Positions 29,769 to 54,970 of a stretch of DNA of 64,000 nt are shown in pieces. Numbering within the stretch: the first letter of the stretch is position 1; each line of letters begins with the position of its first letter. Source of the stretch: Eledone cirrhosa (lineage: Eukaryota); assembly GCA_964016885.1 (NCBI GenBank), contig OZ024741.1:136834001-136898000 (forward strand), given 5' to 3'. The translations under genes and the position numbers were made by a program. The notes under the pieces are model-generated. The model had not been told where the DNA came from. It saw only the letters and a program-made list of their open reading frames with translations, and searched no databases.

Positions 29769-29940
29769 ATGAAGGAGTTGGACCATAACGCACCAGAGTA
29801 CTCAATACTTAGGGTAGTAGAGTGGGTAATAGGAGAAAGTATGACCCCGACGACAGAGCTCAAGCCATTTCGACGGCTATTTCTGTTCAGAAATAGCCGT
29901 CGAAACGGCTTGAGCTCTGCCGTCGGGGTCATACTTTCTC
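29769..29940. mobile_element. Fold-back mini-element carrying the 3' half of a hammerhead (family P)
   Basis: Palindrome centred at about 29885 (atttctg-tt-cagaaat). The arm reads agccgtc-GAAA-cggc-ttgagctct-gccg-TC^gggg. Copies at about 1902-1960, 31144-31275, 32125-32185, 42912-43100 and 54769-54970. Confidence 0.8.
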
Positions 29941-29985
29941 ATATATATATATATATAAATATATATATATATATATATGGATTCA

Positions 29986-31128
29986 AGTATGGTATACCGG
30001 TGTACTGTGAATTCAGGCAATTCTACCTGGCACTACATAAGTTCCACAGCTGGTGGGTTTAAGAAAAGGTGGTACGTCCACAGACACTCCATGAAGAACC
30101 GTGCACTGGAGAACTCTACGACGCTCGCCAATAAAATCTGGCAGCTTAAGGACAGAAACCTAGAATATAAGATTAGCTGGTCAAAATTATCGGTAGCGAA
30201 AGCCTACAACAACGGTATGTCCCACTGCGAGCTTTGTAATTTAGAACTACTACATATGTTAAGGTACGGTGGGATGCTGCTTAACAGCAAAATAGAAAGA
30301 TCTTTTTTCTGTAGACATAAAATAGCTACTAGATTCACAAACTTTAAACCACCATGAATTGAACCAGCAATCCCAAAATTAGTACTGAACCACCTAGATT
30401 TTAACATATAGAAGACACACCATCGCATTGCTATTAGCTATCAAACGGCCAACTGGTCACTGGATCATAAATCTCTGAACATTTCTTTCACCCTCTCCCC
30501 CTGAAACAGCATCAACCCCATTAAGATAGAACAATTAGCAAAACATTTACAACAAGCGTTTATCAAATGTCCCGTCATCCCTAGCCCATAAATATCATAC
30601 ATAATTTATTGTCTCTTTTATCGGACTCTCTACACATATCTATGTACATCTCGAATCTAGTTTCCCACCAACGAATCCTTATGAGAACACTTACTCAAAA
30701 ACTACTACTATGTACTGACACGCTCTCACCTATTTATTTATTTATCTCTTTATATTTTCCATTCTCTCATTTTCTTACTTTTTAATGTACCCTATCTTAT
30801 ATTCTACTTTTACTTTTTACATCTGTAACTTCTCTACCTATTTACCATACATGTATTATTATTGATGTTATTGTTTAGATTATACGTTATTTTATTATTG
30901 ATGTTATTGTTTTAATTATACGCTATTTCTTTATATAAGTCTTGCCTCGGGTGAATTATTTTCATATCTACGTACTCTGATGTGTTGACCAGAGGTGAAT
31001 AATGTATTGGAGATCGAATAACGCAACGATTAGCGAACTCTAAACCCACATGATCAACGAAACAATTGTTAGTACTTTAAATAAAGCCCTTATTGTACAG
31101 CCAACCATGTTAATCTTCATTCTTTAAC
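29986..31128 (+). mobile_element. 5'-truncated Penelope-like element: GIY-YIG C-terminus, 3' UTR and hammerhead-like motif
   Basis: ORF 29977-30357 has VYRCTV...YISST...FKKRWYVH...CELCNLE...LLNSKIE...CRHK. At 30972-31075: gtact-CTGATGT-gttga...tcaac-GAAA-caattg-TT^agtac. TA-flanked. Confidence 0.8.
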
Positions 31129-31356
31129 TATATATATATATATAGGAAAAAGTAAGGACCCCGACGGCTGAACTTGGTCGTTTGATTCTTCCTATTACCC
31201 ACTCTACTACCCTTAGTATCGAGTACTCTGGTGTGTTATGGTCCACCTGGTTTCTTACCACACTTCCTTTGTTTTATATATATATATATATATATATATA
31301 TATATATATATATATATATATATATATATATATATATATATATATATATATATATT

Positions 31357-50976: not shown

Positions 50977-52924
50977 AAGGTATCAGGTTCAACACGGTGT
51001 GGTGAACTCAGTAACCTATATTTAGTTGATAGCAATCTATGAAGACCTCAAATTATGGGGCTTGCCATGTCAACATTTCTCTCCCGCCACAGACATAGGC
51101 CCAGAATATGTGACTAATGAGAATGCGGAGCTCATCCGGACTTCATAAGCTACCGATGTTCCCCACAGGCAAAGCATCAACCTAATACCCTGAAAACCTG
51201 GTACACACACACACACACACATACACGCACGCACACACACACACACACACACACACACACAGAAAGTCGGTGACGTCTTGAATATTAACAGGATTTATCA
51301 AAATGACAGCCGAAGATATATTTCAATTTTATGTCGTCCTAAACATTGTGTGTTAATATATCCTTCTCTGTAATTATGAAATTATCAAACCCAGCTCTCT
51401 TCACTGTAATAGAGATTCATCCAGCTCATTGTTGGAAGTGGGTGCTACCCAGCAAAGGGGAGCAATACATAGACCTAGACCACCAAATCGGTTGGATACC
51501 AGAGTAAGTCTAAAGTTAACTTGTCCGTCAAGTCTCTCAAGGATGATTAGGTTGTCAAAGAGTTGCATAGTCAAGGAAAATCGGGATTAGTGTTTATTGG
51601 GCTTCCATCGGTTCTGACGATGAGTGTTCCCGTTGTTTGATCTACAGAACAGCCTGCTTGAGAAATTAACGTGCAAGTGACTGAGCATCCCACAGACGTT
51701 TACCTTAACGTAATTCTCAGAGATATTCAGCGTGATACAGTATGTAACAAGACTCGCCCTTTGAATCACAGATACAACTCATTTCTTTCCAGCTCAGTGA
51801 ACTAGGGCAACATTAAATAAAATGTCTTCCTCAAGGACACAATGTGCCGCTGGGAATCGAACACATGATCTTACGAACGTGAGACAAAAACCCTAACCGA
51901 TACGCCACGCGCCTTCACAAAGATGTAAAATAACTTCTGGATTAACAAGTAAATGCTAAAATGTAAAAAAGAAAATGCTTGGTGGCGTTCTATTACGTAA
52001 ATATATTTAGTGATTGCTCGGTATTTGACAGCTTAGAGCAGTGATGCCCTAACAGAGCCCTGCGGCACATTTGTATGCCATGGGCTGATATTTAAAAATC
52101 TATATATATAAAATACAAACTGAAATTTCTTCTGCTTCATTTCTTTAATACTTAAAATTACTGTTGTTTTAATTATTTATCATTATAAGATAAAACATTT
52201 AAATATATCCTTTTATTATACGTTTTACTTTGTGCACAACGCGAGTCAACAGTTTATCCTTTCTCTAAAGTGTGACATAAGCAAAAAAAAAAAAAAAAAA
52301 AAAAAATGTTTGGGCATCATTGGCTTAAAGGCAATATTAGAAGTTAGGGCTCCAAGGGAACACCATTAGTTTGTTTGCTTTTAATCCCCGATAGTAAATG
52401 TATCTGTAGGAAATAGCCGGCAGACAACCCATTAGAATTATAGACGTGAATGGGTTATATAAACTGGCTATTTCCTAGTGAAGCGTAGTAAAATAACTTA
52501 TTTTTACGATAAGTGTAGTTAAATATTTTAAAGACAAAAACAAAATTCTACGTTTATGTTTTTCAACAATGAATTAGAAGCATTTTAAAATAAACTTTTG
52601 TTACTTTAGAAGTCATTTTTTTTCCTTTTTACATTGGACATAGTAGTTATTTCAAAGAAACTTATTTGAAAGTAGTACATTTTATCTATAGTAATTCTAC
52701 GTACATATGTTTAACTATGCTACATTAATTTGTTACGCTCAGGTAAAAAGAAATTAATGTTTTAAAGATAAAAAATAAATTCTACCAATTCTTTGTATTA
52801 TGAAAAGAAAATAGAATTTTAATAAATAAAAATGATTCTAAGATAAAACGATACTTGCCAAAGATGCCATAAAAATCACGACCGCCGACTCTCTCTATAT
52901 AAACACACACACAGATATATATAT

Positions 52925-54745
52925 AACCTAGTCTACGGACTTCGCTGCACGGAGTGCAGCGCGACTTACGTCGGACAGACTGGACGTCGCCTGGCGGACA
53001 GATTTACTGAGCACCTCCGGGATATTCGTCTCGGTGGTAGTTCCCCCATCGCCCGCCACTTTGGTGCCCCTGGACATTCCGCACACCATCTCACCGTCTG
53101 TGGCCTACTCCAATGCCACGGAACACCCGCCAATCTCCTAAGAGTCGAACAACGAACCATCTTCATCTTACAGACCCACACTCCCCCCGGCCTGAACTCC
53201 CCACCCTTATTCCTTTAGCCTTCGACCGCCCCCCCAAACATATCCCCCACTAACACCACTAACACACCCCTCCTTTTCACCGCCCACCCCACAACTAACA
53301 ATACTAACACCTCCACCCCACATCCGACCACTCTTCCCCAACTAACATACTAACATCCCTCCCTTCTTCTCCCCCCCTCCTTATCACACGCACACACCCA
53401 CCGGTACATATATACACGCGCTCACACTAAACACACACCCTACTACCACCACTAACCCTCACCCCCACACATCCATCCCACCACCAGGCAACTAACATCA
53501 CTAACACCCCCTGATCCCAAGCACACGAACACATACACCCACTTACACCACCCACCCTACACGCAACTAACATCACTAACACCCCCCAACCCTGCGCACA
53601 CGTACACACACACCCTCTTACACCACCCATTCTACACACCCTACCACCACTGACCCCCACCCACACCCGCATTCAACCCTTTCTCCACCTCCTGTATACT
53701 AACACCCACTAACACACCAGTACACTACCCTCCCTCCATCGGCCCCCACACCCTTCTCTCCCCGCTCCACCCACACCCTTTCTCAAACACTCACTCATCC
53801 CACTAACACCCCTATTAATATACACACACACCCTCCTCACTCCAACTTTCACACCTACCCATCCTCTCCCCTGTCCACCGCACACACTGACACACCTTCA
53901 CTTACCATTCTACCCTACTGCTGCTATGCCCTCTGACCACCTCCCCGCACACACAGACACACAACACTCCTCCTGCCTTGACCCTCTGACCACTTCCTGT
54001 TGCGCGCGCACCCCACATCTCCCCTCTTCCGACCAATCTCTTCACGGATTACACATATGTGAACCTTGATCCCGAGAATCCACCGCATCCAAGGATTTTA
54101 CTCAGCATTCCACCACTTCTTTTTACGGAATTACCTTTATGACTCACCCCACACACACACACCCAAAAACATTTTTTTTCCCACACGCCACCTACATTCA
54201 CAACACGCATAAATACCACACACACACGTGCGTACCACCACATATTTACACATTCAGCCTCCGGAATCCTCTCCCCCACCCCTCTATCCACACATACTCC
54301 GACCTACACCCCACCCCACACACACCTCTTCCAGAACATGCAACCCCGTTCTTCCCCCAACCCTTGATTTCACATACACACACACACACACCACCTTCAG
54401 CCCTCCCCGCTCGGACACCCCGTCTCCCTCTCCCCACACCACCTGCCACCACCTCTACACGCCCCACACCCTTCCACCACCTGTTTTACTTCATGTTTAA
54501 TTTTATTTTGATCATGCCTTTATTTTTAATTTCATTTGCACCGTTTCCTCTCACCCCCTTTTCGCTATATGTCTCTCCACCACTCCCCTACACACCCTTT
54601 GAACTCTCTTCCCACACACTTTTCACCTGAAGAAGGGCTTATGCCCGAAACGTCGTTCCCCACCACCACCGCACTCTCAAGAGCGTGAAATTAATAAACC
54701 TTTGTTTGTACTGCCTCTCTGTTTTGTTCCCGTTCAATTTTTCAC
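52925..54745 (+). mobile_element. 5'-truncated Penelope-like element: GIY-YIG remnant, C/A-rich 3' UTR and minimal hammerhead
   Basis: Frame 52925-53218 reads NLVYGLRCTECSATYVGQTGRRLADRFTEHLRDI...PIARHF...EQRTIFILQTHTPPGLN. At 54625-54656: ac-CTGAAGA-a-gggc-ttat-gccc-GAAA-cg-TC^gt. AATAAA at about 54693, then (TA)n. Confidence 0.88.
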
Positions 54746-54768
54746 TATATATATATATATATATATAT

Positions 54769-54970
54769 AGGAACAAGTATGACCCCGACGGCAGAGCTCA
54801 AGCCGTTTCGGCGCCTAATTCTGGATTTTAGTTCAGAATTAGCCGTCGAAACGGCTTGAGCTCTGCCGTCGGGGGTCATACTTGTTCCTATTACCCACTC
54901 TACTACCCTAAGTATTGAGTACTTTGGTGCGTTATGGTCCATCTGGTTCCTTACCACATTTCCTTCGTTA
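54769..54970. mobile_element. Fold-back mini-element, family P
   Basis: Palindrome centred at about 54828 (ctaattctg...cagaattag). Confidence 0.8.

Follow-up and report, generated by a model that had tools for sequence, protein, structure and literature searches.

Head-to-head stubs of a Hydra-clade Penelope-like element in Eledone cirrhosa: a probable product of reverse transcription primed from both target strands

The window analysed here is a stretch of 64,000 nucleotides (nt) of the Eledone cirrhosa genome (assembly GCA_964016885.1, contig OZ024741.1, positions 136,834,001 to 136,898,000 of the forward strand). It contains three asymmetric palindromes (Table 1) of a repeat, termed here family P, that derives from a Penelope-like element (PLE) and carries part of a hammerhead ribozyme. 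A first reading of the window (the sequence-only reading) had pointed out these palindromes, which prove to be real, and had proposed that nascent complementary DNA (cDNA) snaps back on the ribozyme's stem II hairpin to prime its own second strand or, alternatively, that the palindrome has itself become the replicating unit. The analysis presented here leads to a different view, namely that family P palindromes are head-to-head stubs, probably produced when both strands of the target copy sense RNA to its predicted capped 5' end and are then joined. Each of the three copies is flanked by (TA)n runs, lacks the 5' half of the ribozyme core (the CTGANGA half, already reported absent) and ends its short arm in TTCC followed by TA. 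Their centres are unlike, reading CTG-TT-CAG, CTGGAC-A-AGAA and CTGGA-TTTT-AGTTCAG in copies 1 to 3, respectively; the ctatttctg hairpin said to be common to all three occurs in copies 1 and 2, whereas copy 3 has ctaattctg. In coordinates of the parent element described below, copy 1 runs from +123 to +5 and then from +2 to +52 and on to the short end; copy 3, in which parental +1 falls at window position 54830, is oriented oppositely to copies 1 and 2.

Table 1. Family P palindromes and related features of the window (positions are those of the window; signed numbers are parent coordinates)
Feature	Position	Strand	Description
Family P copy 1	29769..29940		Long arm antisense (internal deletion near outer end) and short arm sense; centre 29886-29887
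Family P copy 2	42912..43099		Long arm antisense 42912-43045 (+135..+2), 1 filler base, short arm sense 43047-43099 (+6..+58)
Family P copy 3	54770..54968		Short arm antisense 54770-54825 (+58..+3), long arm sense 54827-54968 (-3..+137)
Hammerhead 3' half, sense-arm example (copy 2)	43058..43089 (approximate limits)	+	GAAA, stem III with palindromic loop, GUC cut triplet, stem I 3' strand; from sequence and parent fold
Family P stub	1903..1960	-	Short arm (+58..+6) fused to about 5 nt of long end, in (TA)n
Diverged family P insertion	31146..31273		Short arm antisense and long arm beginning at +55
Diverged relative of family P long arm	32079..32192	-	83% over +118..+59
Family R palindrome (comparison)	5160..5600		Short-end/long-end build; centre CAGTT, about 42 nt upstream of its own CTGAAGA core
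Palindrome of another family	2230..2440 (approximate limits)		Centre inside CTGATGA core
Palindrome of another family	33450..33635 (approximate limits)		Short and long end; centre just 5' of its own core
Family Q 3' end	29600..29745	+	Hammerhead, AATAAA, then TA run hosting copy 1

Within the 3.0 Gb of genome searched, there are 52,348 exact matches to core 24-mers and at least 8,210 exact palindromes with both inner arms intact; reversed-pattern controls gave 0 in both cases, so that the palindromes cannot be attributed to chance. A DNA search returned 2,272 candidates, 40 of which were scored, and all 40 were full-length copies with 93-100% identity (the query included); an alignment of 30 of these and two more copies from the window shows arms that are nearly constant around a highly variable centre. 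The statistics given below come from several sets: 80 junctions (35 of them found with a pattern unable to catch whole-loop centres); 40 pairs picked on the core alone, which provide the cleanest test of snap-back; 282 arms for the tally of outer ends; 91 close head-to-head pairs; 81 pairs for the concordance between arms over 49 nt; and, as a sample of jump products, 20 loci fetched from the 331 that read through the long end genome-wide. DNA contigs across copy 2 bridged no empty site, and the (TA)n context would mask a target-site duplication.

The parent is represented by a complete insertion, locus L133, which comprises an inverted long end, a partial tandem, an open reading frame (ORF) of 719 aa and a short end. 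Positions are numbered such that +1 is L133:4349 (the A of ttAGTCC in loop II of the ribozyme); on this scale the core begins at -43, cleavage is predicted after +41, and the AUG lies at +232. The encoded protein, a single ORF, has the reverse transcriptase (RT) motif YRDD and, at its C-terminus, a motif of GIY-YIG type (VIY..YIG), together with the Hydra-clade motifs RLRW(R) at 35 (with RWR, not RWK), DKT at 117, CNCPDRSIC at 572, CNLC at 670 and CKH at 698; its Atlas neighbours at 0.97-0.99 include animal GIY-YIG/RVT clusters. Family P insertions, moreover, sit in (TA)n, as do those of Hydra-clade PLEs. Judged from these features, the parent is a Hydra-clade PLE with an intact ORF, an assignment based on motifs and on by-eye likeness to the element Hydra-1_Obim. 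Both the Penelope-like origin and the hammerhead 3' half had been recognized correctly in the sequence-only reading. The parent that was to be looked for is represented by L133, with ORF and full ribozyme; its core, however, is a variant (YUGANAA), which is why a CTGANGA search, with 46 matches, revealed an intact parent in none of 30 loci inspected. At several loci (L241-L244 and others) full-length family P units form head-to-tail arrays with a period of about 3,530-3,545 bp, and these are candidate source loci.

That the family P core is YUGANAA and not CUGANGA is seen in copies that extend upstream; in the fetched loci, a sample enriched by an upstream-pattern search, the variants are CTGAGAA (24), TTGAGAA (18), TTGATAA (6) and TTGAAAA (3). 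Core position pair 3-8 is either U3-A8 or a mismatched C3-A8, the former being a natural covariation reported for hammerheads, Schistosoma PLEs included. Arms carrying the 5' half of the core number 6,876 genome-wide. The predicted parent fold is a three-way type I hammerhead (z 0.27, that is, not stronger than shuffles) and places the palindrome centres in loop II, in keeping with the earlier suggestion that centres cluster in stem-loop II. The native 5' strand of stem II, however, lies about 30-38 nt further upstream of the ctatttctg/cagaaatag hairpin, which is the inversion itself and not native stem II. Should transcription indeed start at +1, the RNA of the 5' ribozyme copy would lack the 5' half of the ribozyme, and self-cleavage of the monomer would not be possible. 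For annotation, the variant core carries a warning: searches based on CUGANGA only will miss parents of this sort. In a single case (L012, at about 1130-1160 on the minus strand), a long arm carries an A-rich insert where its ribozyme is predicted to cut.

The outer ends of the stubs are fixed. Among the 282 arms, 131 end at +58 (the short end) and 114 at +137 (the long end), each of which precedes TAT in the parent. The stop of the short arm at 'ta' had thus been correctly noted, whereas the extra length of the long arm, put at about 70 nt, measures 79 nt in parent coordinates; this +58/+137 interval is the PLE tail. Close head-to-head pairs nearly always combine the two ends (81 long with short, 1 long with long and 9 with an unclassified end), as do most in the 80-pair set (65 long with short, 1 short with short and 14 unclassified). 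The unit of PLEs with an endonuclease (EN+)--that is, an inverted, 5'-truncated copy with a tail at one end--is therefore present in the same 81 of 91 close pairs, with L133 and L121 as long examples.

The inner ends share a sharp upstream limit at about -5 to +1, with trimming downstream; no arm in the 80 junctions goes beyond about -5, and 183 of 278 long arms (not a random sample) start at -5 to +12. A peak of starts at the ribozyme cut site (+42) is not supported (2 of the 278). A few long arms start at +53 to +61 (window 31189-31273 and others), some of these being alignment artefacts; under classical twin priming, it is there that cDNA from the long site would run into the primer of the short site. 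The boundary coincides with an initiator-like word in families P and R, and the word at +1 resembles the initiator consensus. An internal promoter with an initiator (Inr) and a downstream promoter element (DPE) has been reported for Penelope of D. virilis (PMC2377424). A second mark of the boundary is an additional G: 17 of 48 arms retaining +1 have G at -1, as against 0 of 23 parent variants. Genome-wide, the base at -1 is G in 5,194 cases versus A in 849; exclusion of CTG and CTGG, which may derive from the partner arm, leaves 1,153 G cases, and in 6 of 29 loci screened in this way both arms bear the extra base, with 0-2 nt between them. Reverse transcriptases are known to add a C opposite a 5' cap; a literature search found no paper directly on this addition.

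The stubs most likely arise as follows. The element's protein would nick both strands of (TA)n; each 3' end would anneal to one of two UAU sites (+58 and +137) on a capped sense RNA and prime reverse transcription there; both cDNAs would run off the predicted capped 5' end (+1) inside hammerhead loop II; and host repair would trim the ends, add filler bases and join one cDNA to the other. By analogy with Poseidon in vitro (PMC11167929), it would be the element's own protein, probably as a dimer, that primes both strands; one RNA would usually serve for both; the join would be made by non-homologous end joining or Pol-theta-type repair; and the stubs would be dead by-products.

Several points weigh against this scheme. 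Searches of Pfam and PDB gave no match for the L133 protein. The capped start is deduced from DNA, an RNA search having listed no match, and a downstream promoter element of the Drosophila type is not evident by eye. Part of the G excess could be partner-derived (CTG-AGTCC is present in about half of the 17 G arms sampled), and a number of G cases fall within microhomologies. About 13% of arms (6,876 versus 52,348, counted with different patterns) extend upstream of +1 and call for a different origin: they may have been primed within the 3' repeat, copied from read-through RNA or made by a jump. Later deletion could account for part of the asymmetric junctions, and some junctions and fillers look like snap-back, as described below. 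Finally, at L145 one pair joins two recurrent subfamily haplotypes, in view of which the use of one RNA for both strands is not proven.

An alternative that retains twin priming places the common stop not at a capped start but where, within the AU-rich loop, the polymerase stalls or the RNA is processed; the G would then be a terminal-transferase addition. It would account for a boundary that is a few nt wide (-5 to +1) with scatter downstream and for the arms that pass through it. Nonetheless, it is unlikely, inasmuch as the bias for G over A is strong despite an AT-rich genome, initiator-like words mark the boundary in both families P and R (as would befit an internal promoter like that of Penelope), and pieces that re-start downstream end at the same base.

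The joins between arms bear on the manner in which the second arm was made. Among the 80 junctions there are 64 distinct centres, and the most recurrent simple centres occur 5, 4, 4 and 3 times. Sixteen junctions are blunt and 29 have insertions; the spacer is 0 nt in 10 and no more than 2 nt in 38. Some of the insertions are copies of nearby sequence, a type of filler typical of Pol-theta-type repair. In many insertions, one arm is cut at a variable point and its partner begins near +1 (as also at joints in DNA contigs), and either arm may reach further: the long arm in 32, the short arm in 20 and neither in 13 (n = 65).

Such joins are hard to reconcile with a nascent cDNA that snaps back on stem II. 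In favour of this idea, the centres do lie in loop II and the arms of a copy do match each other; simple snap-back (requiring at least 2 nt of microhomology and a loop of at least 3 nt) fits 3 of the 80 junctions, or 15 if a 1-nt primer is allowed; some fillers resemble brief snap-back; and a published discussion puts forward self-priming as the source of palindromes at PLE junctions (PMC3846280). But the 5' strand of stem II is copied in none of the 40 core-chosen pairs, not one of which passes -7; nearly half of the spacers, at 0-2 nt, are short; an untemplated end base is possible on both arms; joins between two families exist; and the fixed short end is left unexplained. In other families, furthermore, the centre is found within the core, within stem I or 42 nt upstream. 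Family R, which has 1,608 exact matches and the same short/long build, is centred at CAGTT, a word that precedes its core by about 42 nt, and the palindromes near 2338 and 33500, though at or next to a ribozyme core as had been stated (inside it and just upstream of it, respectively), are not centred in stem II; hence the centre tracks a family-specific point rather than stem II. Stem II snap-back is thus largely refuted for family P and must be considered very improbable. Self-priming on an antisense transcript, as proposed for the junction palindromes of Adineta PLEs, has the merit of being the published reading of head-to-head palindromes (Arkhipova et al. 2013; PMC3846280), yet both outer ends of family P are fixed sense-RNA positions preceding TAT, the untemplated base occurs at the sense-strand 5' end on both arms, and the spacers are too short for hairpin priming; self-priming of this kind does not fit the family P junctions and is even harder to credit.

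Whether each palindrome was made separately can be judged from the likeness of its arms. Over 49 nt in 81 pairs, the arms differ at 1.9 positions within a copy, compared with 4.7-5.1 between copies (a result reached in 0 of 5,000 permutations), and at position +48 they agree in 80 of 81 pairs, where 34 would be expected. Allele frequencies are equal in long and short arms, which show no fixed differences, and the main subfamilies among the stubs are also present as long, ORF-side copies. Because the arms of a copy share a subfamily, each palindrome appears to have been built anew from a subfamily template, instead of one founder having spread as a miniature inverted-repeat transposable element (MITE). 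To this extent the sequence-only reading was right: MITE-like palindromes are made anew without a DDE transposase. Neither of the outcomes that were to refute it was seen, since inversion centres are not randomly distributed and the long arms of different copies do not form a group separate from the short ones. Homogenization of the arms by gene conversion was considered and rejected, rare variants being found in one arm only in 138 cases and in both arms in 14. That the palindrome itself replicates, either in the form of a hairpin RNA or as a DNA MITE that a transposase directed to TA would move, is the least credible proposal of all: the excess of palindromes over long-end read-through loci (8,210 versus 331) and the few recurrent centres speak for it, but its termini (+58 and +137) are unrelated sequences and thus not terminal inverted repeats, the arms and the many distinct centres show no inheritance of one unit, the main stub subfamilies have ORF-side copies, and jump products carry RNA sequence beyond the long end that is absent from stubs.

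Products involving more than one family, or more than one pass along the RNA, extend the proposed two-strand priming scheme. Family P is joined head-to-head to family Q at L038, L046, L048 and L052, all of which stop at one point of Q; these came from a search that enriched for them, and none is found in the core-chosen sample. Two templates can therefore be used in one palindrome, though rarely. At L045, L051, L056 and L039, another family's ribozyme region is followed, sense to sense, by family P from about +1; such chimeras would fit template jumping from one family to another. Of the 20 read-through loci, 5 have a strand that reaches about +1, begins again at +203 to +254 or at +959, and runs back, three of them returning to about +1; these products hold sequence absent from stubs, which implies that the template carried sequence that stubs lack. 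Within one short/long insertion (L234:1374-2034) there is a tandem of 257-nt units, each from -3 to +254, which is possibly a first step towards a retrozyme-like array.

A more speculative extension, which is offered tentatively, likens the working of the pseudo-long terminal repeat (pLTR) to that of a retroviral LTR. Transcription would start in the ribozyme loop, so that only the 3' ribozyme copy cuts; the two 'strong-stop' cDNAs, begun at two sites in the 5' untranslated region (UTR), would have to jump to the 3' repeat of the RNA (+1 to the cut at +41) in order to copy the ORF; most products would be palindromes, left where neither jump succeeded, and repeated jumps would give the partial tandems of PLEs. 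In its support, jumps after run-off are recorded, and L315 ends exactly at +41 with upstream sequence attached. As to ribozyme-cut ends serving as jump acceptors, about 6 of 30 pieces end at +41 (a count confounded by a GTC microhomology) and upstream sequence is found in only 2 of the 30.

In LINE-1 (L1) twin priming, two primers from one target use one RNA and thereby generate a head-to-head inversion; L1 inversions are non-overlapping and have a variable second site. Family P differs in that both sites are fixed and the arms usually overlap. Its stubs resemble MITEs of the Tc1/mariner type in being short, abundant, non-coding and located in TA, but they have no terminal inverted repeats and their centre is not inherited. 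Among the closest counterparts is the Hydra clade of C-terminal EN+ PLEs, for instance Hydra-1_Obim (PMC8557442), which shares with the parent the RW[R/K], DKT, CxCX5C, CxxC and CxH motifs, a C-terminal GIY-YIG-type domain, (TA)n targeting, a unit of about 3 kb and a hammerhead (in the parent, a predicted one) within the pLTR; by eye, the L133 protein is similar to the N-terminal half of Hydra-1_Obim. The hammerhead listed there for Hydra-1_Obim nevertheless has a canonical core and other stems, as opposed to the U3-A8 or C3-A8 core of family P, which further differs in its 79-nt tail and in the predominance of stubs of about 200 bp. Family P is thus a different family from the listed Hydra-1_Obim.

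The standard EN+ PLE unit, as set out in two reports (PMC8557442; PMC3846280), includes an inverted 5'-truncated copy and an optional 30-40 bp tail. Family P has in common with it the head-to-head inverted copy, a tail at one end, a palindrome at the inverted junction and partial tandems; in contrast to it, truncation occurs at a single fixed point in the two copies, which are left about 60 and 140 nt long and frequently bear an untemplated G. In vitro, the protein of Poseidon_Ac cuts and extends both target strands, and two internal RT start sites bound its tail (Frangieh et al. 2024, PMC11167929); in the same system, the targets are AT-rich, the protein is a predicted dimer and ribozyme cleavage is dispensable. 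Poseidon_Ac belongs to another clade, however, with start sites that fall within the ORF and share no homology with the target, whereas those of family P lie in the 5' UTR and match (TA)n through TAT; neither 5' run-off nor inversion joints are treated in the available part of that paper. Animal non-LTR retrozymes (bioRxiv 10.64898/2026.07.22.740005) have a PLE-type hammerhead, as does family P, but are tandem units with complete type I hammerheads, unlike head-to-head stubs that lack the core's 5' half.

Both the insertion type and the clade are already known. The origin of tandem and inverted PLE insertions is named as an open question by Craig et al. 2021 (PMC8557442), and no published description of a cap-marked double run-off in PLEs was found in a search that left subscription literature mostly outside its reach. 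What family P contributes is numbers: from thousands of stubs of a single family, the strand used as template, the two sites at which RT began and the probable start of transcription can be read to the base, and the stubs favour two-strand priming on capped sense RNA over self-priming on an antisense template. They also call for caution on the part of annotators, since abundant MITE-like palindromes in TA repeats can be by-products of a retrotransposon.

The remainder of the window is rich in related elements. Copies 1 to 3 each lie in a TA run right behind the 3' end of a different PLE family (29600-29745, 42770-42890 and 54620-54745), each of these ends having a hammerhead-like motif and AATAAA; TA runs at PLE ends thus seem to collect further insertions. 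An Rfam scan of the window gave no hammerhead family among the 150 of 308 matches listed, and the palindromes gave only sub-threshold microRNA hairpin matches. A young full-length PLE of another type occupies 55293-60050, with a 766-aa ORF (56563-58863, minus strand, RVT_1 match) between 1,252-nt inverted repeats that are 100% complementary. Older remains include a Hydra-type endonuclease-end remnant at 29980-30351 (40% identity to the C-terminus of the parent protein) and, at 38249-40277, a broken PLE ORF with a C-terminal GIY-YIG-like motif, flanked by inverted repeats at 37366-38100 and 40287-41025. Elsewhere, there are a minisatellite array of about 21 units of a GC-richer 80-bp sequence (26691-28414), ORFs that by eye resemble a pogo/Tigger-type DDE transposase (34404-35635), and a repeated, partly inverted element at 21971-22459 that is possibly a short interspersed element and contains a tRNA-like match at 22253-22323 (Rfam tRNA, 38.8 bits).

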